Source: a virus
Taxonomy: Duplodnaviria; Heunggongvirae; Uroviricota; Caudoviricetes
Direction: 5' to 3' (one strand)
Length of the DNA stretch: 37,557 nucleotides
Virus record (IMG/VR): IMGVR_UViG_2588253749_000008
Shown: in pieces, positions 1 through 37,557 of the stretch
How positions within the stretch are numbered: position 1 is the stretch's first letter
Layout: each line of letters starts with the position of its first letter
Notes under the pieces: generated by a model
The model's input: the letters and a program-made list of their open reading frames with translations, nothing else
Database searches by the model: none
What the model was told of the DNA's origin: nothing
Translations under genes and position numbers: made by a program

Positions 1-996
1 CTAACGAACCAGCCAGACCAGCATCAGGATAATCGCGACTAACAGTATCCACAGCGCGGGACGCGTTGCCATATTTTGCAACGTGTCCATCATCGGTGGA
101 AAAGGATTAAGCAGCGGTTGCATATCACGCGGATCAATCCCTTTAACCCGCCGTTGATAAAGCTGATTAAGAATATCCTCGGCCTGGGCAGAAGAAAGCG
201 ATGATTGCGCAGAAAGGCCATATTTTTGCTGGATATATGCCGATAACGCCGCCAGTTCACTGGCATCTAAAGGTTGTTTTAGCGCCATCTGTAGTGATTC
301 CAGCGTCGGCGTATTTTGCTGGCTTAACGTCTGGCGCGCCTGCAACCAGGTCACCAGATGGTTAAACAGTTTCGCTGGAATTAACTCGCCATCTTTCACC
401 CCGGAAAGTTCCAGCATCGATTGCCAGATCTGTTTGCTGGGTTCCCCCGTTGCCGCCGCAAGTTTGGTCACCAGCTGTTTTAGCGCATTGTGCTCCGCCG
501 GTAATAAAGGACGGTCGGTCGCCTCGCGCTGCTGTGGTTGCGGAATAACCATCTTCCCTTCCTGCAACAGGGTGAGAATGGTTTTTAATTGCTCCGGTGA
601 GAGCTGATTCAGCGGCGTCTGACCAAAGTTATGACGGATATAATCCGTGACCGCCTGACGATTATTCCCCAGACGTAAATACTCCCCTAATTGCGCTAAA
701 AGCTGGCGGGCAGAATGGCTTTTTTGCGCGGCCAGCAGACGTTGCGCCAGATTATGCTCAGCGGCAGGGAAGTGACGCGAAAGCAGCGGTGAATCTCCCG
801 ACAGACCAATATCGTGCCTGATACCCGCCCACAGTTCTGCTCTTTGTTGTTGCGTCAGTGAGGTCACTTTCGTCATTAAGCTTTCCAGCGAAGTACGTTG
901 CTGACTGGATAAAGGCTGATTGCCCGCGCCAGACGGCAGGTTATCTCCCTGACCTGGTGGTTGCCCAGGAGGAGGGCCGGAAATAGGTTGTATCAT
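1..996 (-). CDS. flk: Flk-like flagellar regulator, C-terminally membrane-anchored
   Basis: 331-aa ORF with Pro/Gln-rich N-terminus and a single C-terminal hydrophobic segment (ALWILLVAIILMLVWLV); size and architecture match what I recall of E. coli Flk. Identity from memory, not verified. Confidence 0.45.
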   Translation of the reverse strand: MIQPISGPPPGQPPGQGDNLPSGAGNQPLSSQQRTSLESLMTKVTSLTQQQRAELWAGIRHDIGLSGDSPLLSRHFPAAEHNLAQRLLAAQKSHSARQLLAQLGEYLRLGNNRQAVTDYIRHNFGQTPLNQLSPEQLKTILTLLQEGKMVIPQPQQREATDRPLLPAEHNALKQLVTKLAAATGEPSKQIWQSMLELSGVKDGELIPAKLFNHLVTWLQARQTLSQQNTPTLESLQMALKQPLDASELAALSAYIQQKYGLSAQSSLSSAQAEDILNQLYQRRVKGIDPRDMQPLLNPFPPMMDTLQNMATRPALWILLVAIILMLVWLVR

Positions 997-1055
997 TACG
1001 TATCCTTATACCTGAAATCTTCGCAAGTATGCCTGGCCGCGAGATTATGGCACAC

Positions 1056-1064
1056 TTGTCCGGT
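1056..1064. repeat. IS1 target-site duplication, left copy (TTGTCCGGT)
   Basis: Identical 9-mer directly abuts both IS1 ends. Confidence 0.85.
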
Positions 1065-1119
1065 GGTGATGCTGCCAACTTACTGATTTAGTGTATGATG
1101 GTGTTTTTGAGGTGCTCCA

Positions 1120-1395
1120 GTGGCTTCTGTTTCTATCAGCTGTCCCTCCTGTTCAGCTACTGACGGGGTGGTGCGTAACGGCAAAAGCACCGCCGGACAT
1201 CAGCGCTATCTCTGCTCTCACTGCCGTAAAACATGGCAACTGCAGTTCACTTACACCGCTTCTCAACCCGGTACGCACCAGAAAATCATTGATATGGCCA
1301 TGAATGGCGTTGGATGCCGGGCAACTGCCCGCATTATGGGCGTTGGCCTCAACACGATTTTACGTCACTTAAAAAACTCAGGCCGCAGTCGGTAA
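1120..1395 (+). CDS. insA: IS1 InsA
   Basis: 91-aa product [39 protein letters not shown]..., GTG start. Confidence 0.9.
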
Positions 1396-1817
1396 CCTCG
1401 CGCATACAGCCGGGCAGTGACGTCATCGTCTGCGCGGAAATGGACGAACAGTGGGGCTATGTCGGGGCTAAATCGCGCCAGCGCTGGCTGTTTTACGCGT
1501 ATGACAGGCTCCGGAAGACGGTTGTTGCGCACGTATTCGGTGAACGCACGATGGCGACGCTGGGGCGTCTTATGAGCCTGCTGTCACCCTTTGACGTGGT
1601 GATATGGATGACGGATGGCTGGCCGCTGTATGAATCCCGCCTGAAGGGAAAGCTGCACGTAATCAGCAAGCGATATACGCAGCGAATTGAGCGGCATAAC
1701 CTGAATCTGAGGCAGCACCTGGCACGGCTGGGACGGAAGTCGCTGTCGTTCTCAAAATCGGTGGAGCTGCATGACAAAGTCATCGGGCATTATCTGAACA
1801 TAAAACACTATCAATAA
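1314..1817 (+). CDS. insB: IS1 InsB reading frame (transposase made as InsAB' fusion by -1 frameshift)
   Basis: 167-aa ORF overlapping insA in the -1 frame, canonical IS1 arrangement. Confidence 0.9.
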
Positions 1818-1832
1818 GTTGGAGTCATTACC

Positions 1833-1841
1833 TTGTCCGGT
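1833..1841. repeat. IS1 target-site duplication, right copy (TTGTCCGGT)
   Basis: Identical to 1056-1064. Confidence 0.85.
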
Positions 1842-1970
1842 TAACTCTCGTCTCATACAGGTAACACAAACGTGAAAATCCTTGTTGATGAAAAAAATGA
1901 TGATTTAATTTATTGATATAAAAGGATTTATATCAGCACGTGTCCACGTAGTGACCACATTTTCGAGTTA

Positions 1971-2012
1971 CAGATAACACAAAGCCCGTTTTCACGGGCT
2001 TTGTGTTATCTG
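1971..2012. repeat. Perfect 19-bp-stem palindrome (CAGATAACACAAAGCCCGT tttc ACGGGCTTTGTGTTATCTG)
   Basis: Exact inverted repeat read from sequence, just downstream of the 2040-2933 gene; no clear U-tract on either strand, so terminator versus protein-binding site is undecided. Confidence 0.5.
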
Positions 2013-2039
2013 GATTGTGGCTAAGCCACATGATTTATG

Positions 2040-2933
2040 CTATTTCCAGTTACAAGCAGCTTGAAGTGGTTTTAGCGCGTTTGACAGGCCGTTTAAATTG
2101 AAAGTTGCACTTACAGGGCTCTCATTATAAGGAGTTATTTTTGTATACATTTTGTTTGAGTTGGCTAGTTTTCGGATGAAATCAATGTCATTACCTTTAT
2201 AAAAAACAGCCTTTGTATCTGTAGATACTAGCCAGTTTCGCTCAACTGCTTTCTGTTTATCAAGACGATAAAGCATGCTGGTTTGTTCAAGGCCTAAATA
2301 TACATCCCAACTAAGAAATACTTCGGTTTTCTTTTCTCGGCAAGCTATAAACAGAGTGGGAGTAACCGCTTCTCCAAATGGAGTTCTGATATAATCATCA
2401 CTTTCTAACGATAAAATTACATTTTTCGAATCATCAATTGGCGATGTAGTAATGGATGTGTGCCATTTTCCTACATCTGTGGCTTTCTCTAATTTTGATT
2501 CAGCTTGAACAGCTTTATCCTGTGGGAATAGTTTATCGTAGCAGTTTAGTCTGGCTTCTTTATCATTTTCTGCTCGGCATTTAGATATCTCAGAAAGATT
2601 TGGTTGCTGAGCCTCTGTTGTTACTGGCTTTTCCGTTTTAGATTTTGAGTTTACAGATGGAGTAAATGTTGGAGAAAAAAAACGATCATAACAAGATAAA
2701 CGTCTGTCATCATCTTTCTCATCAGGGCATTGATCTCTGCTTTCGAATTTTTCAGCAACTTTCGTTCGAGTCGGTTGTATTGACTTATCGTAACAAGAAA
2801 GTCTGTCTTTATTATTTTCTATTGCTCGGCACTGGAGTACTGCATTGAAGTTATTATGTTCAGTTGCTGCGTGAACAGGCAGTACACTAATTGATATAAA
2901 TGATGCACCTATAGAAAAAATTATATTTTTCAT
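2040..2933 (-). CDS. Secreted/periplasmic protein with three Cys-x8-9-RL(S/N)CYD(K/R) repeats and a ~150-aa C-terminal domain of unknown function
   Basis: 297-aa ORF; N-terminal signal-peptide-like segment MKNIIFSIGASFISISVLPVHA; three spaced two-Cys repeats; visibly GC-poor. Confidence 0.6.
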   Translation of the reverse strand: MKNIIFSIGASFISISVLPVHAATEHNNFNAVLQCRAIENNKDRLSCYDKSIQPTRTKVAEKFESRDQCPDEKDDDRRLSCYDRFFSPTFTPSVNSKSKTEKPVTTEAQQPNLSEISKCRAENDKEARLNCYDKLFPQDKAVQAESKLEKATDVGKWHTSITTSPIDDSKNVILSLESDDYIRTPFGEAVTPTLFIACREKKTEVFLSWDVYLGLEQTSMLYRLDKQKAVERNWLVSTDTKAVFYKGNDIDFIRKLANSNKMYTKITPYNESPVSATFNLNGLSNALKPLQAACNWK

Positions 2934-2937
2934 TTTG

Positions 2938-3270
2938 TTATCCTTTTGGTTTAGTAAGAAATACTAAAATTCCGATAATGATATCGCCAATAACCCATAA
3001 ACTTCCAATGGTAATTAAACCTAAGCCTGTACCAATAACTGCACCGGCTTTTTCGGCATCGGATGTAGCATTATTTATTATTTCACTAGTGCCTCCCAGT
3101 CCAACTAAAAGCGTATAGATCATAAAAATATTAAATAATATAAATATCCACTTAATGAGCTTTCCAAAAAATGAACGCTTAAGTTTTTTTATTTGTTTAC
3201 CGCAAGCAGGGCAATACAATGCTGAATCGCTCACCTCTTTCTGGCATTCAGGACATTTGATTAATGCCAT
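2938..3270 (-). CDS. Zinc-ribbon membrane protein (N-terminal CPxC...CPxC, two predicted TM helices)
   Basis: 110-aa ORF MALIKCPECQK...CPACGKQ followed by two hydrophobic stretches; GGAGG RBS; stop lies 5 nt before the start of 2040-2933 (operon). Confidence 0.6.
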   Translation of the reverse strand: MALIKCPECQKEVSDSALYCPACGKQIKKLKRSFFGKLIKWIFILFNIFMIYTLLVGLGGTSEIINNATSDAEKAGAVIGTGLGLITIGSLWVIGDIIIGILVFLTKPKG

Positions 3271-3531
3271 GTAATCCGCCTCCTTTGGATCAATACGAGT
3301 TGATATTTGTTACAAAACATTTTGATTTTATCAGATTTTTTTTTATTGATAAGTGTCAATTGATTAGCTGGTATAGAGTGAGACATATAGAAGGGCAGAT
3401 CTGTATCAGTAGTGATGCAAAAATCCCACAGTTTCATGGAATTTTTGCATTTAGAGCCGTGAGATAGGGTGCCTTATCGACCTTACCCTGGCAACCGATT
3501 GACGGGGGATTACTCCCCCGTCGCGGTTTCC

Positions 3532-3672
3532 TTACTGCTTACACTGTAAGAACGCCGCAAACTCCGCTCCCCAGAAACTCATCCGTATTTCGCACAGCGA
3601 ACCGTGCAACATCCAGATGATGAGGATTACCGTCACGCAGAACGTGATGGCTGTAAGCGATTTTTGCGACAT
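3532..3672 (-). CDS. Hok/Gef-family type I toxin (small membrane peptide)
   Basis: 46-aa ORF not in the supplied track: MSQKSLTAITFCVTVILIIWMLHGSLCEIRMSFWGAEFAAFLQCKQ; shares the SLCEIR and E-x-AAF motifs of Hok/HokA-type toxins; stable 3' stem-loop GACGGGGGAttacTCCCCCGTC at 3501-3522. Confidence 0.65.
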   Translation of the reverse strand: MSQKSLTAITFCVTVILIIWMLHGSLCEIRMSFWGAEFAAFLQCKQ

Positions 3673-3862
3673 AGCACTTGCTCCTTTTCCGGAGAGGCGC
3701 TAACCTTTCACTTGCTTAGGGTAGACGGTTAGGGCCTCGGTTAAACAAAAGTGTTTTCCGGGGCCTTTCCACATCTGGCCTTCGGGTATTCCCTCCGACC
3801 ATCAGCCGAAAGGCACCCGCGCGTAATCTATCGCTTTTTTGTTACTCCGGCAATTCTGCTTG

Positions 3863-4123
3863 TTAATTCTGAGGTAAAGGCAAACTCATCTGATTGTTTC
3901 CCCTGTGTGAAGCTGGTAGCTCATGCCACGGGATACCTTCTGAAGAGTGAACGCCGGAGGCGTGTTTCGATGTGAATTTATGGAAAGCTTCCAGTGTTGA
4001 GAAGCATACGCCGCATTCCAGATTGTTACACTGGTAATACTTTTGCCGCACGGTGTTTGAATCATTTTCCGGACGACTTGTGCGGATACGGGCAGATGCG
4101 CCACAAAGCGGACAACGGAACAT
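3863..4123 (-). CDS. ogr: Ogr/Delta-type zinc-finger late-gene activator
   Basis: MFRCPLCGASARIRTSR...YYQCNNLECGVCF matches the Ogr CPLC...QC..C zinc finger; ORF is 86 aa versus about 72 aa for P2 Ogr. Confidence 0.8.
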   Translation of the reverse strand: MFRCPLCGASARIRTSRPENDSNTVRQKYYQCNNLECGVCFSTLEAFHKFTSKHASGVHSSEGIPWHELPASHRGNNQMSLPLPQN

Positions 4124-4314
4124 AGCGACCTCCCTTAACGTGGTGTTGCCGCTATTCTAGATTGTACGATCCCTAATTCCAACTAACAGCTCGCTCTGTG
4201 CGAAGAGTGAAAATTGAACTTTCAATAGTTGTTGAACTTCCATACATCCAATGTGAAAATTCATACGTTCATAATAGTTAAAATTTAAAATATTGTATAT
4301 CAGGTGAATAAAGC

Positions 4315-5337
4315 ATGGGAAGAGATATAACGCTGTACCCTAAAAAAGCAACTAGAAACGAACTTAAAAATTACCTTGAAAATTTAGGTTTTAAAAGGTG
4401 TAAACATTTGTGGGAATGGCCCCAAGGAACGTTGAATTACTCTTGGTTTGATGATACGGACTTCAAATCTACAGATGGAGTTTCGGCTGATATATATCCT
4501 GTTTCAAATGACGAATTACACATATCTGGTAATAAATGGGCATTGCATGTGCGTAATTTATATAGCGCTAGTTGGCATGATGTAAAAATGCTTAATGATG
4601 TTCTAAAAGGCGCAAGGAGTCTTTTTGGTGGAACACTTATAGGTGATTATGGGAAAAATAGGTACGCTCCTCTATGGAAGGATTCTAGTAGTCCGATCAG
4701 TCGTGGCATTTCTTCAATATTTAATCATGTCCATCATGAGATTTCCGCTGTTAAACATGCCTTACCTGAACCTTCTATTAAATTAAACCTACCGGAAGAT
4801 GGCGGCTTATCCGAATACTTTGATTACATGCAATGTATGGATCCCAGTAGAGTTATATATAATGGATTAGTACCTTTTGCGGTTGCTATGTTTGAATACT
4901 TTTTCTCTAGAGCTTTTCAAATACTTATAAAGTACGATCCTTTCGCAATAGCAAAAAGAACATCGTATAAGCAAAAAGTTGATTTTGATATTCTGCTTGA
5001 GATAGAGAAAGGAAATATTTCAATAGAAAGTGTTATTGCAAGAAATTACACTTTTCAAAACTTAACCCACCTAAACAAAGCATATAAAGAGTGGCTGGAT
5101 ATAGATGTGAGAGCGATTCTTTATAAGAAAAAAAGAATTGGAAAATCAGTTGATTTTCTTGAGAATCGAATTTCTGAAATCATACAATATAGACATGGGA
5201 TAGTTCATCACTTTGAGTTGGATAGGACCTTAAATCGGGATGGATATATTCATATATTAGATGCGATAGAAAAAAGCATAATTGAATTTATCCATTACAT
5301 AGAAGGCAAATACAAATTTAAATTAAATGCGTATTAA
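4315..5337 (+). CDS. Orphan GC-poor cargo gene, 340 aa; C-terminal alpha-helical region with an R-x4-H (YRHGIVHH) HEPN-like motif; candidate defence/abortive-infection protein
   Basis: Intact ORF opposite in orientation to flanking ogr and D; AGGTGA RBS; visibly AT-rich against the prophage backbone; followed by a hairpin at 5366-5389. HEPN assignment is motif-level inference only. Confidence 0.55.
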   Translation: MGRDITLYPKKATRNELKNYLENLGFKRCKHLWEWPQGTLNYSWFDDTDFKSTDGVSADIYPVSNDELHISGNKWALHVRNLYSASWHDVKMLNDVLKGARSLFGGTLIGDYGKNRYAPLWKDSSSPISRGISSIFNHVHHEISAVKHALPEPSIKLNLPEDGGLSEYFDYMQCMDPSRVIYNGLVPFAVAMFEYFFSRAFQILIKYDPFAIAKRTSYKQKVDFDILLEIEKGNISIESVIARNYTFQNLTHLNKAYKEWLDIDVRAILYKKKRIGKSVDFLENRISEIIQYRHGIVHHFELDRTLNRDGYIHILDAIEKSIIEFIHYIEGKYKFKLNAY

Positions 5338-5365
5338 GCAATCAACCTTACATAGGGATGACAAA

Positions 5366-5402
5366 GTCCGCTTCTGACACGGAGCGGACCGTCGTTTATG
5401 TT
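5366..5402 (+). terminator. Putative terminator of the cargo gene (GTCCGCT...AGCGGAC hairpin)
   Basis: Inverted repeat then a weak T-rich tract (CGTCGTTTATGTTT). Confidence 0.4.
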
Positions 5403-5457
5403 TAATTCTATACTGTAAACTTGCCAGTTTAAGTTTGAGCTAATATGTCTAAGTTGC

Positions 5458-6568
5458 TCACTCTGTTTCTGCTATCCATTCCGGGATTTTTGCCTCAAGC
5501 TCAAGCTGTGTGGTAAAGCCGCTGTTATCAATGGTGTGCTCGGCTTTCGCAATAATCCAGTCCTGATTATCAATCTCGCTTTTAAATCCTGTTACCGTGC
5601 CATGCATTTCGGGGTAGAGTTTCTGCACGTCCACGCACCAGCGTGATGGAAAACGATGCGGCTCCGCGTTGTAGCTGCTGCCACTTTGCCGCCGCTGCGC
5701 GTCTTGCTGCCTGCTCGTTCTGATAAGTCTTGCGTAACACAAACACATTGCCTTCCGCGCCTTCCATATAATCACCTTCACGGCTGCTGCTTTTCTCCTT
5801 TTTGGGTTTTGGCGGTTTGCGGCGTTTCACGCTGACTTTTTTCTTTTTCCCGTAATTAAGATCAAGCCAGTAAGCGCGTACCCCCGTATACGCCTCGCGG
5901 TCAGCAATGCGGAACTGATGGCGATCGCCGCTGCTGCGTGTGATGGCGAACGATGGCAACGGCTGGCCCTGTGCGTTTACGCCACCGCCGGGCATGATGA
6001 ATAACAGATTACCGCTTTTTACCGTGGTGATTGCGCCCAGCATTTCCGCCATGCGCGTAAGGAAGGACATGTCGCTTTCTTCAGTCTGGTCGGCGTGGTC
6101 GATTTCGATATCCATCAGCATTTCGCTGATTTGCGGTTTCAGGCCGTACCGATGAGCGATGGCGGATACCACACGTTCAACGGTCACATCATGCCAGGAC
6201 GCCTCACGTTTAACATTAAATTCATCCCGAAAATCTGCGCTTCTGGCTGAAACAGTCAGCCTGTCCGGCGGTCCTTCGTGAGCGATTTCATCAACAATGT
6301 AAGTGCCTTTTTCTGTCAGCGGTTCCCCTTTCCAGCCAATGAGAACCGTCAGACGCGCGCCCCGTGGCGGTAGCTGCAACTGGCCATCGGCATCATCCAG
6401 CGTGATGGTGAGCTGGTCCGCCTCAAATCCCCGGTTGTCGGTCAGTGACAGGCTCATCAGGCGTTCTGCCACGCCGGACAGCGTTTTACCCTCGGCGAGA
6501 ATATCAAAATCCGGCATTTTCACGGGGTCTGTGCCCTGACTGAGCAATTGCATGGTGGTGTCGGTCAT
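5458..6568 (-). pseudogene. D: P2 gpD-like tail protein, interrupted by an apparent +1-nt frameshift near 5625-5640
   Basis: N-terminal 329 codons in one frame (ORF 5582-6700, start reassigned to ATG at 6568 with GGGAGGGAG RBS); conserved C-terminal 45 residues (HGTVTGFKSEID...GFTTQLELEAK) in the overlapping ORF 5458-5781; junction at GCAGAAACTCTACCCCGAAATG. Confidence 0.7.
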
Positions 6569-6621
6569 CTGCTCCCTCCCTGTGTGGCATGGTCGCATGT
6601 GCGTGCGGAGGGGGTTACTGC

Positions 6622-6656
6622 TTTTTGTTGTCGCCGTGGCGGGAGAATGGCGCAGG
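6622..6656 (+). promoter_or_regulatory. Candidate Ogr-dependent late promoter upstream of FI
   Basis: CTTTTTGTTGT-N12-AGAA...CAGGGG, the same motif pattern as upstream of P at 24258-24292; resembles the P2 late-promoter TGT-N12-ACA element (from memory). Confidence 0.3.
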
Positions 6657-6725
6657 GGTGAGATTACGCGCGTGGTGGGTGATGATTGTTGCCGAATCAT
6701 TTAACGGATACAAGGGGCTGAAGCT

Positions 6726-12312: not shown

Positions 12313-12346
12313 AACCGCTAATGACCAGATTAGCGGTTATTTTGTT
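12313..12346. terminator. Bidirectional rho-independent terminator between U and the invertase gene
   Basis: AACCGCTAAT gaccag ATTAGCGGTT flanked by T-runs on both strands; overlaps the invertase stop codon. Confidence 0.55.
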
Positions 12347-12930
12347 TCCTGACTCTTCTCAATTGTTCCGCTTGATTCTCCTGCGGGGTGGTAACGATAA
12401 ATCGTCGATATACCAATGCCGTAAATTATTGCCAGTTGTTTTCTGTCGTGCCCGTTTTTGATCAGCCTTGCTATTTGCTCATGCTGTTCTTTTGTCAGCT
12501 TCGGGCGACGTCCGCCTGTGCGCCCTCGTGCGCGCGCTGCAGCCAGTCCGGCCAGTGTACGTTCAACAATTAATTCACGTTCCATTTCAGCCAGGGCACC
12601 CATCACGTGGAAGAAAAAACGCCCCATTGGAGAAGATGTATCTATGCTGTCGGTCAGACTGCGAAAATTAATCCCTCGCTCCCGTAGTTCCCCGACGAGA
12701 GAAATCAGATGTTTCATGCTTCGCCCGAGGCGATCCAGTTTCCAGACAACCAGCGTGTCGCCTTTTTGAAGGCGCTTTAAAGCGCGTTTTAATCCCGGTC
12801 GGTCTGTCTTTGTCCCGCTTAATTTATCTTCAAATATTTGTTCGCATCCTGCACAAACAAGAGCGTTTCGTTGCAGGTCTGTATTCTGGTCATTTGTTGA
12901 TACGCGAACATAGCCAATAAGCATGATCAT
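12337..12930 (-). CDS. Serine recombinase, DNA invertase (Hin/Gin/Cin/Pin family)
   Basis: 197 aa; N-terminal GYVRVSTNDQ catalytic-serine motif, C-terminal HTH; sits beside the invertible tail-fibre segment. Confidence 0.9.
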   Translation of the reverse strand: MIMLIGYVRVSTNDQNTDLQRNALVCAGCEQIFEDKLSGTKTDRPGLKRALKRLQKGDTLVVWKLDRLGRSMKHLISLVGELRERGINFRSLTDSIDTSSPMGRFFFHVMGALAEMERELIVERTLAGLAAARARGRTGGRRPKLTKEQHEQIARLIKNGHDRKQLAIIYGIGISTIYRYHPAGESSGTIEKSQETK

Positions 12931-12979
12931 CCCCCTGAATAAAAACCGGGGATGATGCCAGTTAGCTGTTACCTCTGCA

Positions 12980-13005
12980 TTTTCTTAAACGTTGGTTTGG
13001 GAGAA
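12980..13005. other. gix/hix-like crossover site A (TTTTCTTAAACG TT GGTTTGGGAGAA)
   Basis: 26-bp imperfect palindrome matching the 12+2+12 invertase-site pattern TTnTCnnAAACC as recalled; inverted relative to site B. Confidence 0.6.
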
Positions 13006-13449
13006 GGTGCTCCAGCTATTGGCGTTCCGTTCTTCTGGCCCTCCGCGGCAATGCCAAATACTGTAATCGACAGCTGGTCCGGTATGGTGTTTTTGAAGTT
13101 CAACGGGGCGAAATTTTCTGCCTCTGATTACCCTGTGCTGGCGAAAGTGTTTCCTTCGCTGGTATTACCTGAAGCCCGCGGTGATTTCATTCGTATCTGG
13201 GATGACGGGCGAGGTGCAGACGGTGGTCGCGAATTATTAAGCTGGCAGGCAGCTACAAACTTTTCTCAGTTTGCCGGGAATATAGGCGAAGGTGCGGGAC
13301 ACGCAATTAACTTTCATGATGGCATCGCCGGAAATCAGCCAGGATTTTCACGATTTAATTTCACCAGTAACTCTGTGGGTGATGGTGTGAATTTTGTTGC
13401 TGTCAGACCGCGAAATATTGCATTTAACTTTCTGGTGAGGGCTAAATAA
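12994..13449 (+). CDS. Silent alternative tail-fibre C-terminal cassette (Sv'-like)
   Basis: Begins at the crossover with LGEGAPAIG, mirroring LGLGEAAK at the crossover inside H; would fuse in frame to the H constant region after inversion. Confidence 0.6.
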   Translation, partial: GLGEGAPAIGVPFFWPSAAMPNTVIDSWSGMVFLKFNGAKFSASDYPVLAKVFPSLVLPEARGDFIRIWDDGRGADGGRELLSWQAATNFSQFAGNIGEGAGHAINFHDGIAGNQPGFSRFNFTSNSVGDGVNFVAVRPRNIAFNFLVRAK

Positions 13450-14042
13450 TGAAACCTGTTTTTGATGAAAATGGGCTGGCTACAGTGCCGGGCGATATGC
13501 GTTGTTTTTATTATGATGCTGAAACATCTGAGTATACGGGCTGGTCTGATGAATATATTAATACTGGCGTAAGTATGCCCGCCTGTTCCACTGGTATTGA
13601 CCCTGGCGAAAACATTCCGGGAAGAGTGGCAGTATTTACAGGTAAGGGATGGAGCCATGAAGAAGACCATCGCAATGAGACTGTTTACTCAATCGAAAAT
13701 GGTGCTGCTGTTACAGTGGATTATATCGGTGCCATCAAAAACGGTTATGTCACGCTTTCACCGTTAACGCCATATGATAAATGGGATGGTGAGAAATGGG
13801 TGACAGATACTAAGGCACAACACGGTGCCGCAGTAGAAGCGGCAGAAGCACAGCGCCAGTCACTGATTGATGCTGCAATGGCTTCCATCAGCCTGATTCA
13901 GCTGAAATTACAGGCCGGGCGGAAGCTGACGCAGGCAGAAACCACCCGGCTTAACGCCGTGCTTGATTACATTGACGCGGTGACGGCAACAGATACGAGC
14001 ACCGCGCCGGATGTCATCTGGCCTGAACTGCCGGAGGCGTAG
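13449..14042 (+). CDS. Tail-fibre assembly protein, alternative copy (Tfa')
   Basis: 197 aa; C-terminal motif DTSTAPDVIWPELPEA parallels the other Tfa copy. Confidence 0.75.
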   Translation: MKPVFDENGLATVPGDMRCFYYDAETSEYTGWSDEYINTGVSMPACSTGIDPGENIPGRVAVFTGKGWSHEEDHRNETVYSIENGAAVTVDYIGAIKNGYVTLSPLTPYDKWDGEKWVTDTKAQHGAAVEAAEAQRQSLIDAAMASISLIQLKLQAGRKLTQAETTRLNAVLDYIDAVTATDTSTAPDVIWPELPEA

Positions 14043-14454
14043 GCCATTCAATATCTGGCGCACCGGAAGTATCGACCAGTTCCAGTGCGTCCAGATAATC
14101 CAGCCACAAATTATATTGCACCAGTTCCTCACCTTTCAGGCGACCAATCGCCGCTTTACCAGGCCATTGCTTACTGTTTATGTATTCGTTGACCTGATTA
14201 ATCAATTGCTGCTTTTCCAGTTCGGCTGCGGCAATTTGTTCCTCATGAGTTGGCGGTGGAATATCAATCCATGCAGGCATTCCGTCGATGACACCTCTGT
14301 ATTTTCCTTCTGGTGCTTCCTTCATAAATTCGGCGGCAACAGTGTCGTCAATTTCGATTCCATCACCGGGCCATTCGCCGGATTCCTGATAAGCGATTTT
14401 AAGCTCCACAGGGAAAAACGCATTTTTATCGGCACTGAAAATATATTTCTGCAT
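14014..14454 (-). CDS. Tail-fibre assembly protein (gpG/Tfa, currently expressed orientation)
   Basis: 146 aa directly downstream of H; C-terminal DTSGAPDIEWPTPP. Confidence 0.8.
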   Translation of the reverse strand: MQKYIFSADKNAFFPVELKIAYQESGEWPGDGIEIDDTVAAEFMKEAPEGKYRGVIDGMPAWIDIPPPTHEEQIAAAELEKQQLINQVNEYINSKQWPGKAAIGRLKGEELVQYNLWLDYLDALELVDTSGAPDIEWPTPPAVQAR

Positions 14455-14456
14455 TT

Positions 14457-15863
14457 CTACCGTCCTATCGAAATATAACTGAATCTGTATTGCTGTGAGA
14501 TATCACTGGTTGCCACACGCCACGCTGAATTACTGATATGTTCAAAATTTACAGACAAAACCTGCGGGGCAGGATTCGACGGGTCTGACTGAACGGCATC
14601 AGACATAACACTGACTGAAATCATCGGCTGATTAGGGAATGGTATAGGGAAGTGTCCACTGATAAAGCGGGTCGTGTTTCCTGAAAAAGTGCCAAACTGA
14701 ACAATATATCCACCTGGTAGCCTGAACCATCCCGAACCAGAAGCGAATGCTCCCATATCCGGTATCTGATTATCTCCTGTGCCCACATCCCTTTTCGCCG
14801 CTTCTCCTAAACCAAGGTATGCGAGAAGACCAGCAACATCCTTTCCACTCAAATTAGTCAGCGTATTGTCCAGCGGTTGTTTGTCTGCCAGTGCATTAAG
14901 CACTGTTGTTGAAAAGTTAGGGTCATTCCCCAGCGCCGCCGCCAGTTCATTCAGTGTATCCAGTGCCGCAGGGGCAGAACCCACCATTGCCGCAATTGCT
15001 GATTTCACAAAAGCTGTGGTGGCAATCTGTGTATTGTTGACCGACTGTGCCGCAGTAGGTGCTGTTGGCGTTCCGGTAAGTGCCGGACTCGATAGCGGCG
15101 CTTTCAGTGCCAGCGCATTGTTAATGGTGGTGCTGAATTTCGGGTCATTGTTAATGGCTGCGGCAATTTCTTTCAGTGTGTCCAGCGTGGCTGGCGCACC
15201 GTTAATCAGATCGGTAATAGCGGCCTGAACAAACTCAGTGGTCGCAATCCGCGTGGTGTTATTTCCTGCGGCAGGCGTCGGCGCTTTTGGTTCTCCGGTA
15301 AATGTCGGATTATGTTTCTGCGCATACTGGGTATGAGGATCCTGTGCGGCAATGTGGTTTCTCATCTGGTCATCCACATACAGCTTTAATTCCAGGACTT
15401 TATCATCCACGTATTTACGGGTCGCCAGTACCACCGACGGGTCGATTTTCAGCGTGATGGCTTCGGTGTTCGTGACAACCAGAATCATGCGGATAGTCTG
15501 GGTGCGTCCACTGCCTTCCTGCAACTGCGGTTTGTACGTTTCCGGGCAGTTTGCCACCGCAATGAGTACACCTTCATCATCATAAAGACCAATCTCACGG
15601 ATCCAGAATCCTCCCTCGTTTTCAGGGATGATTTGCTCAGCAATAATCTGGCTCTGATTGTTAGGGTCAACACTCAGAAGATTCAGCGGTGCAATGCGTT
15701 TCTGGTTAATCAGTTTTGTTTGTGCAGGGTCTGGTGTTGGTAACACACCATTTGCATCACCAACGGCCATTTGCGTCAGATTCAGCTTACTGCCGAGCAT
15801 CGTCGCGTTAGCCAGTCGTGCCGCGCCCTGATTAGTCAGAATGGCGTAGTATTTCACTGTCAT
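14457..15863 (-). CDS. H: Tail fibre protein (gpH): constant N-terminal part plus invertible C-terminal part
   Basis: 468 aa; conserved tail-fibre N-terminus MTVKYYAILTNQGAARLANA; crossover site B lies inside the gene. Confidence 0.9.
   Translation of the reverse strand: MTVKYYAILTNQGAARLANATMLGSKLNLTQMAVGDANGVLPTPDPAQTKLINQKRIAPLNLLSVDPNNQSQIIAEQIIPENEGGFWIREIGLYDDEGVLIAVANCPETYKPQLQEGSGRTQTIRMILVVTNTEAITLKIDPSVVLATRKYVDDKVLELKLYVDDQMRNHIAAQDPHTQYAQKHNPTFTGEPKAPTPAAGNNTTRIATTEFVQAAITDLINGAPATLDTLKEIAAAINNDPKFSTTINNALALKAPLSSPALTGTPTAPTAAQSVNNTQIATTAFVKSAIAAMVGSAPAALDTLNELAAALGNDPNFSTTVLNALADKQPLDNTLTNLSGKDVAGLLAYLGLGEAAKRDVGTGDNQIPDMGAFASGSGWFRLPGGYIVQFGTFSGNTTRFISGHFPIPFPNQPMISVSVMSDAVQSDPSNPAPQVLSVNFEHISNSAWRVATSDISQQYRFSYISIGR
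14802..14827. other. gix/hix-like crossover site B (TTCTCCTAAACC AA GGTATGCGAGAA)
   Basis: Inverted partner of site A, inside H. Confidence 0.6.
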
Positions 15864-36552: not shown

Positions 36553-37557
36553 ATGTCGATTAAGAAGCTCGAAGATGGTCGTTATTTGCTGGACATCAGG
36601 CCGAACGGACGCAAGGGAAAGCGCGTGCGTAAGGTATTTGACAAAAAATCGGTAGCGGTGGCCACTGAACGCTACATCATGGCGAACGCTGAAAAGCGGG
36701 AATATATACAGGGCTACCGTGATCGTCGAACGCTAAATGATTTGCTTGAGTTGTGGTGGATGTATCACGGCCAGCACAGGCGTAAGGCGGAAGAAGACCG
36801 AAAACAACTGCGCAACATAATCAATGAGCTTGGCGCTGATATGCAGGCTGTGGATCTTGATAAGCTGAAAATTATCGCGTGGCGTTCTCAAAAGATAGCT
36901 GATGGATTGAAACCGTCATCTGCTAACAGGTACATGAATCGGTTATCCGGAATGTTTACCGTGCTGAAAAAAATAGGTCTTTGGGATGCAGAACATCCAG
37001 TAAGGGGAATTTCTATTCTTTATGTATCTCCACGAGAAATGGCGTTCCTGTCACAGAAGGAAGTGGCGCTATTGCTCGATACACTGGAGGGCGACTACTG
37101 GCGTGTTGCGCTTTTGTGTTTAAGCACAGGGGCGCGCTGGAGTGAAGCTTGTAAGCTTCGTGGTGAACAGATAGTTCATAACCGTGTAACGTTTCTTGAA
37201 ACCAAAAATGGCCGGAAGAGAACAGTGCCAATTTCGCAGGCAGTTTGTGAGGCGATCAAAACCAGAGAAACAGGCGGCTTGTTTGAGGTGAAGTACCGGG
37301 AATTCTGCCTGGCGCTGAAAAGAGTTAAGCCCGATTTACCAAAAGGCCAGGCTGCACATGTGCTGCGGCATACGTTCGCCAGCCATTTTGTGATGAACGG
37401 AGGAAACATTATTGCGCTTCAGAAGATTCTTGGTCACGCAACCATTCAGCAAACAATGGCATATGCGCATTTTGCACCGGATTACCTGCAGGATGCGGTG
37501 GCCCTTAATCCGCTGAAAGGTGGCGTAAGTGTCCACGCAGTGTCCACGGGGGATTAA
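36553..37557 (+). CDS. int: P2-type tyrosine integrase
   Basis: Strong similarity to P2 Int as recalled (IKKL.DGRY..DIRP.GR.GKR.R, LCLSTGARW.EA, HNRVTF, VPIS.AV, G.IIALQ.ILGH, QTM.YAHFAP.YLQDA); start reassigned to MSIKK. Confidence 0.9.
   Translation: MSIKKLEDGRYLLDIRPNGRKGKRVRKVFDKKSVAVATERYIMANAEKREYIQGYRDRRTLNDLLELWWMYHGQHRRKAEEDRKQLRNIINELGADMQAVDLDKLKIIAWRSQKIADGLKPSSANRYMNRLSGMFTVLKKIGLWDAEHPVRGISILYVSPREMAFLSQKEVALLLDTLEGDYWRVALLCLSTGARWSEACKLRGEQIVHNRVTFLETKNGRKRTVPISQAVCEAIKTRETGGLFEVKYREFCLALKRVKPDLPKGQAAHVLRHTFASHFVMNGGNIIALQKILGHATIQQTMAYAHFAPDYLQDAVALNPLKGGVSVHAVSTGD

Follow-up and report, generated by a model that had tools for sequence, protein, structure and literature searches.

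The subject of this study is a two-gene operon carried by a 37,557-nucleotide stretch of DNA from a tailed virus (Caudoviricetes; IMG/VR record IMGVR_UViG_2588253749_000008), the whole of which we call the window. The first gene (2938-3270, minus strand), an open reading frame (ORF) of 110 codons, encodes an inner-membrane protein that combines an N-terminal zinc ribbon with a DrpB-like two-helix membrane domain. The second (2040-2933, minus strand) encodes a 297-residue protein with a signal peptide, three cysteine-stapled helical hairpins and a C-terminal VasI/IalB-like beta domain (residues ~150-297). The pair is an accessory operon at the end of a P2-like prophage and not a separate island, and we hold its gene anatomy and its location in the prophage with high confidence. 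Its role is proposed more tentatively: the operon may alter the envelope of the lysogen and protect it against agents that have to cross the periplasm.

Placement of the operon in the prophage

The window consists of flk, an IS1 and a P2-like prophage only. A first-pass annotation, made from the sequence alone, had described the two genes as an island lying between the IS1 and the prophage. They are indeed co-oriented on the minus strand and nearly abutting, with 4 nucleotides (nt) between them, and their GC content (~0.36 vs 0.53) is that of foreign DNA: 0.342 for the 110-codon gene, 0.364 for the 297-codon gene and 0.358 over 1895-3480, against 0.524 in flk, 0.535 in IS1 and 0.534 in the rest of the prophage. 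The view of the pair as an accessory module of two conserved partners with envelope products has stood; the separate island beside IS1 has not. Both genes belong to the prophage, where they occupy the stretch from ogr/hok to attP, and phage genome records contain them.

This placement comes from the comparison of occupied and empty integration sites. In ~5,200 of 5,426 complete E. coli genomes the match is limited to window positions 1842-1894, the 5' end of pdxB, that is, to empty sites in which flk and pdxB are divergent neighbours (sequence ACGTGAAAATCCTTGTTGATGAAAATATGCC), and the pdxB match of the window ends after GTGAAAATCCTTGTTGATGAAAA, at position 1894. In strain 503025, which is 100% identical to the window, the sequence GGGTTAAAAATCCTTGTTGATGAAAATATGCC at the int end leads into pdxB, the junction falling just past the int stop codon, where the window ends. 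The 20-mer AAAATCCTTGTTGATGAAAA stands at 1875-1894, where pdxB has its first codons, and strain 503025 has another copy of it at the int end of its prophage. It is present in 26 of the loci retrieved, and the attP of phage P88 has a one-mismatch copy of it between the VasI-like gene and int. Being common to both prophage ends, AAAATCCTTGTTGATGAAAA is therefore the att core, and its copy in the window is attL, the left prophage boundary. Positions 1842-1874 are chromosomal (flk-pdxB spacer and pdxB start), the prophage extends from 1895 onwards, and both genes, the palindrome that follows them and the neighbouring hok are thus inside it, in the ogr-attP slot.

Next to the core stand the tandem words TGTGGTCAcTACGTGGACA (pair TGTGGTCA-n3-CGTGGACA; 1941-1959, minus strand), which, from the organisation of P2 attP, we take to be Int arm-type sites of the P2 kind in the P' arm of attP. 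The word pair has two matches in the window, one by the core and the other at the 3' end of int (37530-37548), where 0.29 would be expected by chance, and the same arm words follow the terminator in the Klebsiella and Raoultella phages and in P88. Core and arm sites together put the pair inside the prophage and rule out a separate island beside it. The excised genome of P88_4B11 reads in the corresponding order: D, ogr, hok, three small genes, the zinc-ribbon gene, the VasI-like gene, a hairpin, the arm words, the core and int.

The IS1 (768 bp, 1065-1832) is an insertion unrelated to the pair. It is bounded by its own 9-bp target duplication (TTGTCCGGT, at 1056-1064 and 1833-1841) within the flk-pdxB spacer, ~30 bp upstream of the old pdxB start, and it is absent from two other inspected genomes that have the same prophage and the same pair; transport or mobilisation of the pair by IS1 was rejected on these two grounds.

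The two envelope proteins and the signals around their genes

The larger protein begins with a hydrophobic Sec-type signal sequence ending VHA/AT and carries C-x11-C-Y-D-(K/R) repeats at residues 35-50, 69-84 and 119-134, which bears out the earlier description of a signal-peptide protein with three Cys repeats. The family also has two other invariant cysteines, C198 and C294. The C-terminal part, left unassigned at first, is a VasI/TagO domain with an IalB-like fold. The Pfam VasI profile (PF11319) matches over positions 1-184 of 184, with 89.6 bits vs a gathering cut-off of 26.5 (E 2.6e-25), and is carried by all but one of 92 homologues. [quoted passage not shown] The protein has the IalB beta-sandwich fold; the AlphaFold2 (AF2) model is confident over residues 150-297 (predicted local distance difference test 83-95, mostly >90) and makes of each Cys repeat a helix-turn-helix on low-confidence linkers. 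Among solved structures, the VasI profile gives only insignificant matches to TIM21 and to a maltose-binding protein fusion, and a fold search of a viral structure library returned uncharacterised proteins only.

The 297-residue protein thus resembles VasI/TagO (PF11319, TIGR03360) in its signal peptide, in the Cys-x11-Cys-Tyr-Asp hairpin and in a C-terminal beta domain aligned over the full profile. It differs in having the hairpin three times where VasI/TagO have it once (one to three hairpins occur per protein across the present family) and in its place at the att-proximal end of P2-like prophages, usually after a DrpB-like gene and in no T6SS cluster. IalB (PF06776; PDB 3DTD) is more distant, with only 16-18% identity and without the Cys hairpins.

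In the smaller protein, the zinc ribbon followed by two transmembrane helices that the first-pass annotation had recognised is supported on both counts. Pfam Zn_Ribbon_1 matches with E 1.8e-7 around Cys 6, 9, 20 and 23 (CxxC...CxxC), and the AF2 model has long helices at 34-66 and 71-105 that coincide with two hydrophobic peaks. Basic residues precede helix 1 and follow helix 2, the topology being taken from the positive-inside rule only. The protein belongs to phrog_6586 (E 7e-43). The sole lead outside the ribbon is DrpB (NF038392: E 1.4e-4, 22.1 bits vs a cut-off of 50, model positions 2-84 of 86), and several comparisons lead back to it. BLASTP against K-12 DrpB gives E 4e-5, and hhalign of the DrpB and zinc-ribbon family alignments gives 89.6% (E 1.9e-6), placing residues 28-110 on DrpB 10-93. 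The invariant residues coincide, R32/G36/K37/F43 with DrpB R14/G18/K19/F25 and T106/P108 with DrpB T89/P91. The precomputed PF28000 assignment is found in all DrpB homologues and in five zinc-ribbon homologues, and DrpB is the only NCBIfam match in 5 of 10 ribbon-less relatives. From these results, which are consistent with one another and under the curated thresholds, we conclude that the membrane part of the 110-residue protein is a remote homologue of DrpB/YedR.

The phage protein and DrpB both have two helices, and the N-in/C-in arrangement of DrpB with its ~20-residue periplasmic loop is predicted for the phage protein from the positive-inside rule. The motif R-(S/G)-x-x-G-K-L...W-x-F ahead of helix 1 is invariant in both, as is T-R-P-(K/R) behind helix 2. 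The phage protein has in addition the N-terminal zinc ribbon, is phage-borne, and belongs to a family widespread across Proteobacteria, whereas DrpB has been reported only in a few enterics. In multicopy, DrpB, which is found at the septal ring, suppresses a deletion of ftsEX (PMC7648144). Its overproduction activates Rcs via the periplasmic domain of RcsC, independently of RcsF, and induces Psp as well; the T89A substitution abolishes the Rcs activation (PMC11709261). The threonine of the TRP(K/R) motif that aligns with it, T106, is invariant in the phage family. Both products are envelope proteins, in agreement with the envelope association suggested at the outset.

Upstream of the zinc-ribbon gene, a consensus scan picks out a promoter-like element, TTATCA-16-TGaTAAAAT (3325-3352, minus strand), and a strong ribosome-binding site, AAGGAGG, lies between this element and the gene. 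The motif CTTGTCAAT...TC(T/C)GATAAAAT is conserved in P88 and in the Klebsiella, Raoultella and Dickeya phages, and in the phages of these three genera it directly follows the GC-rich hairpin ending ogr. The 20-nt block between the -10 element and the ribosome-binding site (CAAAATGTTTTGTAACAAAT; 3305-3324, minus strand) is near-identical in E. coli, Klebsiella and Raoultella phages despite proteins only ~73% identical, and it is conserved after the promoter-like motif in the Dickeya phages also; it could serve as an operator or as a 5' leader. Further on, the VasI start codon lies 4 nt past the zinc-ribbon stop and the VasI ribosome-binding site is inside the zinc-ribbon gene, an arrangement that suggests translational coupling of the two genes.

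The operon is followed, 28 nt past the VasI-like stop codon, by the perfect palindrome already remarked on, a 19-bp-stem hairpin (1971-2012, minus strand) whose arms (1971-1989 and 1994-2012, with a 4-nt loop) are 100% complementary and whose RNA fold has an energy of -41.9 kcal/mol (z = -10.3 vs shuffles). In P88 three base pairs are changed on both sides and perfect pairing is kept, shifted-pairing controls showing no such changes; the three compensatory changes come from a single lineage and are a small sample. In the Klebsiella and Raoultella phages, canonical terminators with a GC stem and a T-run stand at the position of the palindrome and are followed by the arm words. We read the palindrome as the probable terminator of the operon. 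Its A-rich/T-rich arms and a second small hairpin on the plus strand (TGTGGCTAAGCCACA; 2016-2030), which has a T-rich tail, matches a terminator-like pattern and also forms in the RNA fold, would plausibly make it bidirectional. A bidirectional terminator would block read-in from the orphaned pdxB promoter. No structured RNA was matched by Rfam in window positions 1-6000.

Distribution of the pair and its possible role

At least 80% of the interval is present in only 236 of 5,426 complete E. coli genomes, as expected of the horizontally moving accessory module that had been predicted. Where it occurs, the pair is a conserved unit. The VasI-like gene directly follows the zinc-ribbon gene in 19/19 phage records that have the latter; phage records with the pair include Escherichia phages 500465-2 and PhiR44_2, Xuanwuvirus P88_4B11, Citrobacter phage Shae_phiSM, and Klebsiella phage 3LV2017 and its relatives. 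In 67 of the 80 IMG/VR loci collected with the VasI alignment, the zinc-ribbon gene is immediately upstream of the VasI-like gene, and all 67 are at the ogr-proximal end of P2-like prophages; the remaining 13 have the VasI-like gene alone, beside ogr or an integrase. The pair is kept together down to ~65% identity of the zinc-ribbon protein and ~54% of the VasI domain. The survey of homologues thus finds an adjacent pair outside the core housekeeping genes. Both proteins diverge at similar rates, and the arms-race signature that was looked for is not seen.

The occupancy of the slot is variable. P88 has extra genes between ogr and attP, and in a Pantoea stewartii prophage nothing but a disrupted zinc-ribbon gene is left there, by a P2-type integrase. 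What an E. coli prophage at the tamB site has instead is a VasI-like gene of 43% identity together with a TM2-domain protein and hok. The gene for this TM2-domain protein (PF05154; locus L170, 8830-9126, minus strand) adjoins the VasI-like gene, and its product matches the zinc-ribbon/DrpB-like profile weakly (E 8.5e-4), a hint that small two-helix partners may be related more widely. At the same ogr-att position of a P2-like prophage, on one metagenomic contig (L087, 7001-7732, protein P0052), the zinc ribbon (residues ~1-30) is naturally fused in frame to the VasI preprotein, and the signal peptide would then act as a membrane anchor; this single known case could be a chance deletion.

Outside these phages the association loosens. 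Full-length relatives of the zinc-ribbon protein occur in gamma-, alpha- and beta-proteobacteria, and the zinc-ribbon/DrpB-like family comprises 333 clusters at 50% identity (E<=1e-10), many of them without the ribbon. At a strict threshold, VasI-like genes were found near distant zinc-ribbon homologues in no genus outside Klebsiella, Raoultella and E. coli. Relaxed searches gave weak matches in four loci only, and in each of them the best match is exactly the neighbour of the DrpB-like gene: in Succinatimonas this neighbour is distantly VasI-like (hhalign 80%, E 1.4e-5), in Sphingorhabdus it matches phrog_1848 (E 2e-4), and in Psychrobacter and Porphyrobacter the matches are weaker. The pairing is strong in enterobacterial P2-like phages, sporadic elsewhere, and not obligatory. 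These recurrent neighbours and the fusion suggest that the functional link of the two genes may recur elsewhere.

In Pseudoalteromonas, Photorhabdus, Ewingella, Aeromonadaceae and others, an alternative partner is encoded upstream of the DrpB-like gene, a protein with a zinc ribbon, one helix and a periplasmic domain (phrog_14275; L010 7477-7977, L014 166-729, L016 7284-7991, L017 7441-7965, L022 7265-7987 and L041 7350-7865). It matches weakly a PHROG annotated 'superinfection exclusion' (phrog_15667, E 1e-4). Profile comparison shows no similarity between this partner and VasI, to which it was considered as a possible relative.

The model that we favour for the pair treats promoter, zinc-ribbon/DrpB-like gene, VasI-like gene and terminator as a self-contained moron of the P2-like prophage. 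The operon would be expressed from the prophage in the lysogen. The 297-residue product would be exported to the periplasm, where its helical hairpins, one to three in number and stapled by disulfides, would accompany the IalB/VasI-type beta domain on flexible linkers of their own; the DrpB-like protein would be its partner in the membrane and might act at the division site or via Rcs/Psp envelope-stress signalling, like overproduced DrpB. The outcome would be an envelope altered to the benefit of the lysogen, most likely by the exclusion or the blunting of agents that cross the periplasm, such as a superinfecting phage or other contractile injection systems. What the sequence comparisons show is the gene anatomy, the prophage location, the conservation of the pair and the assignments to family and fold; expression in lysogens, the physical partnership of the two products and the protective function are what we infer, and we put forward the protection or exclusion itself only as a tentative proposal.

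Three lines of evidence, taken together, lead us to favour this lysogen-expressed protective envelope module: the envelope action of both products, the anatomy of the operon and the position of some of its relatives. The operon lies inside a phage genome, at its junction, and is not in the conserved phage gene set, as is the case for morons; foreign GC, a promoter-like element and a probable terminator of its own, and variable occupancy are further moron-like traits. In Brucella phage BiPBO1 and in Klebsiella phage ST11-VIM1phi8.1 a distant VasI-like gene stands directly downstream of an annotated repressor gene, in the same orientation, and another is in the immunity region of Labrenzia phage vB_LagS-V1 (L175 1629-3046, L178 1513-2929 and L176 2396-4260; none has a DrpB-like neighbour). 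Such repressor-adjacent positions would be typical of lysogen-expressed genes. Known moron or exclusion genes of prophages and phages include P2 old/tin/fun, lambda rexAB and T4 imm/sp. The operon resembles prophage exclusion genes as a non-essential cassette of foreign GC with its own promoter-like element and probable terminator at a genome junction and with relatives by repressor genes, and it recalls T4 Imm/Sp in combining a membrane protein with a periplasmic one; old/tin/fun, rexAB and imm/sp have no sequence relation to the pair.

A number of observations weigh against this model. Most full-length relatives of the zinc-ribbon protein in other genera are without a recognisable VasI-like neighbour, and several distant VasI-like phage genes are without a DrpB-like one; with relatives lacking a partner on either side, each protein can therefore apparently work alone. 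A known defence system was considered and rejected, neither protein having a match among the PADLOC-DB 2.0 defence models at E<=0.01, and the PHROG families of both proteins are of unknown function. The promoter is a consensus match only, promoter-scan matches being no more numerous than in shuffled sequence. The relation to DrpB is remote and its region consists mostly of two hydrophobic helices, so that it could reflect architecture and not shared function. Finally, DrpB acts on Rcs as an overexpressed protein, an effect whose physiological meaning is unknown (PMC11709261).

The annotation of the larger gene points to another role, that of a T6SS accessory protein (TagO/VasI) supplied by the phage with a membrane partner and modulating the T6SS of the host itself. 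The Pfam VasI domain is above threshold, the Prokaryotic Genome Annotation Pipeline (PGAP) names the gene 'T6SS-associated protein TagO', and E. coli T6SS-2 clusters include a tagO gene (PMC10562709), TagO/VasI being listed as 'Unknown' in a 2026 T6SS review (PMC13584744). We nevertheless consider this role improbable, since the TIGR03360 equivalog cut-off is missed (75.9 vs 124.2), the window has no T6SS genes, and none of the close homologues whose context was examined is in a T6SS cluster, most of them being at prophage ends; one chromosomal orphan has no T6SS genes nearby, and the distant homologues in Brucella, Labrenzia, Pasteurella and Klebsiella phages have no T6SS link. A toxic membrane protein with its partner, forming a module for abortive infection or addiction similar to the hok beside it, is suggested by the small two-helix nature of the first product, by the membrane stress that overproduced DrpB provokes and by the adjoining Hok/Gef gene. 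We give it little credence: the partner is secreted to the periplasm, unlike known antitoxins, there is no PADLOC match, and the zinc-ribbon gene is found alone in Pantoea chromosomes with no obvious antidote. We are just as sceptical of a role in the lytic cycle, for instance in penetrating the envelope, in timing lysis or in the working of the tail. The tail genes of Pasteurella phage Pmp14 include one distant VasI-like gene, and fold relatives occur in the lytic T4-like phages RB16 and KP15; against this, the operon is outside the late operons with its own promoter-like element and probable terminator, its GC is foreign to the phage backbone, and one or other of the two genes is missing from related P2-like prophage loci.

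A conversion factor acting on host physiology or virulence deserves more weight, and we regard it as a doubtful but serious candidate. It could affect division, capsule or biofilm via Rcs, in keeping with the DrpB homology and with the septal localisation of DrpB and its induction of Rcs and Psp on overexpression, or it could serve an IalB-like interaction with host cells, in keeping with the IalB fold, the link of IalB to erythrocyte invasion in Bartonella and the presence of the IalB-domain protein RgsG at the growth zones of S. meliloti. The mechanisms of IalB and of RgsG are themselves unknown, and the phages that have the pair come from plant, environmental and enteric hosts alike, a spread that speaks against host-specific virulence. 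Furthermore, whenever the physiological change itself protects the cell, this explanation merges with the protective envelope module that we favour. A bolder extension of the latter, in which the pair is a two-part envelope sensor and shield acting via Rcs or the division site against Myoviridae tails, tailocins and T6SS, and in which E. coli DrpB is a domesticated, ribbon-less descendant of the phage family, strikes us as a long shot.

Other features of the prophage and significance of the pair

Several features around the operon deserve mention in their own right. Integration interrupts pdxB within its first 8 codons. At the int end (L003 3560-3625, strain 503025) the phage provides AAGGAG, 7 nt and TTG in frame with pdxB (M-SETEKGL-KILVDENMPYA...), where PGAP instead starts the gene at Met9; PdxB may thus be made with a phage-encoded start and promoter. 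At the other prophage end (window 1872-1916), the orphaned start of pdxB reads MKILVDEKNDDLIY, after which it comes to a stop. A gene for a 46-residue Hok/Gef-family toxin (3532-3672, minus strand; phrog_251, 'MokW-like host killing', E 2.5e-23) lies between ogr and the operon; it is present in the E. coli group of phages and absent from the Klebsiella, Raoultella and Dickeya versions; Rfam at gathering thresholds found no Sok-type RNA. A 14-bp inverted repeat, ATGCAAAAATCCCA / TGGAATTTTTGCAT, at 3415-3450, 93% complementary with an 8-nt spacer, separates hok from the promoter-like element.

On its other side, ogr is separated from tail gene D by a 340-residue ORF (4315-5337, plus strand, GC 0.34), which is divergent from both. 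It has a weak Pfam match to the RiboL-PSP HEPN domain, under cut-off (E 1.2e-4), and no PHROG, PADLOC, NCBIfam or PDB match; Escherichia phage 500465-2 is the only phage record that has it. The ogr-D slot of related prophages has other cargo, for example an alpha/beta-hydrolase in L170, and the ORF may serve in defence, in what would be a second hotspot for cargo. Tail gene D itself (5458-6700, minus strand) has a frameshift at ~5612-5622 relative to intact 413-codon homologues (L088, L093), and PGAP annotates a shortened coding sequence in related genomes; the frameshift may have left this prophage with a defective copy, or it may be an error of sequencing. A 197-residue ORF (12337-12930, minus strand), whose counterpart is annotated 'recombinase family protein' in a related genome, lies by short ORFs of the tail-fibre region (12952-14478, plus strand), which suggests an invertible host-range segment. 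The inversion of the tail block FI-U relative to D/ogr, which was considered as a peculiarity of this prophage, has the same layout in related phages and is normal for the clade.

Both genes are already annotated in databases and present in published phage genomes, and the operon is a further member of the class of prophage morons. Literature searches on the protein accessions, the PHROG identifiers, P2 cargo at ogr-att and pdxB integration returned nothing specific. In the literature searched, the placement of the pair in prophages appears to be undescribed, as do the standing of this VasI subfamily as chiefly temperate-phage cargo without link to T6SS, its regular pairing with the zinc-ribbon protein, and the remote DrpB homology of the latter. 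There is no mechanistic surprise as yet, and if the operon does nothing measurable it will be another uncharacterised moron.

In conclusion, our observations correct a misleading 'T6SS-associated' annotation and a misplaced prophage boundary. They indicate that the close VasI subfamily is mainly cargo of temperate phages, usually travelling with a DrpB-like membrane protein, and that the DrpB fold is part of a much larger and largely phage-associated family, extending far past the few enterics in which it has been reported. Three poorly understood families, VasI/TagO, IalB-type proteins and DrpB, are joined here in one tractable two-gene system of E. coli. Could the pair be a device for exclusion or for stress signalling? 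If so, it would represent a new type of lysogenic-conversion mechanism, and if the sensor and shield extension were true, it would provide the first function for the VasI/TagO domain and for DrpB.

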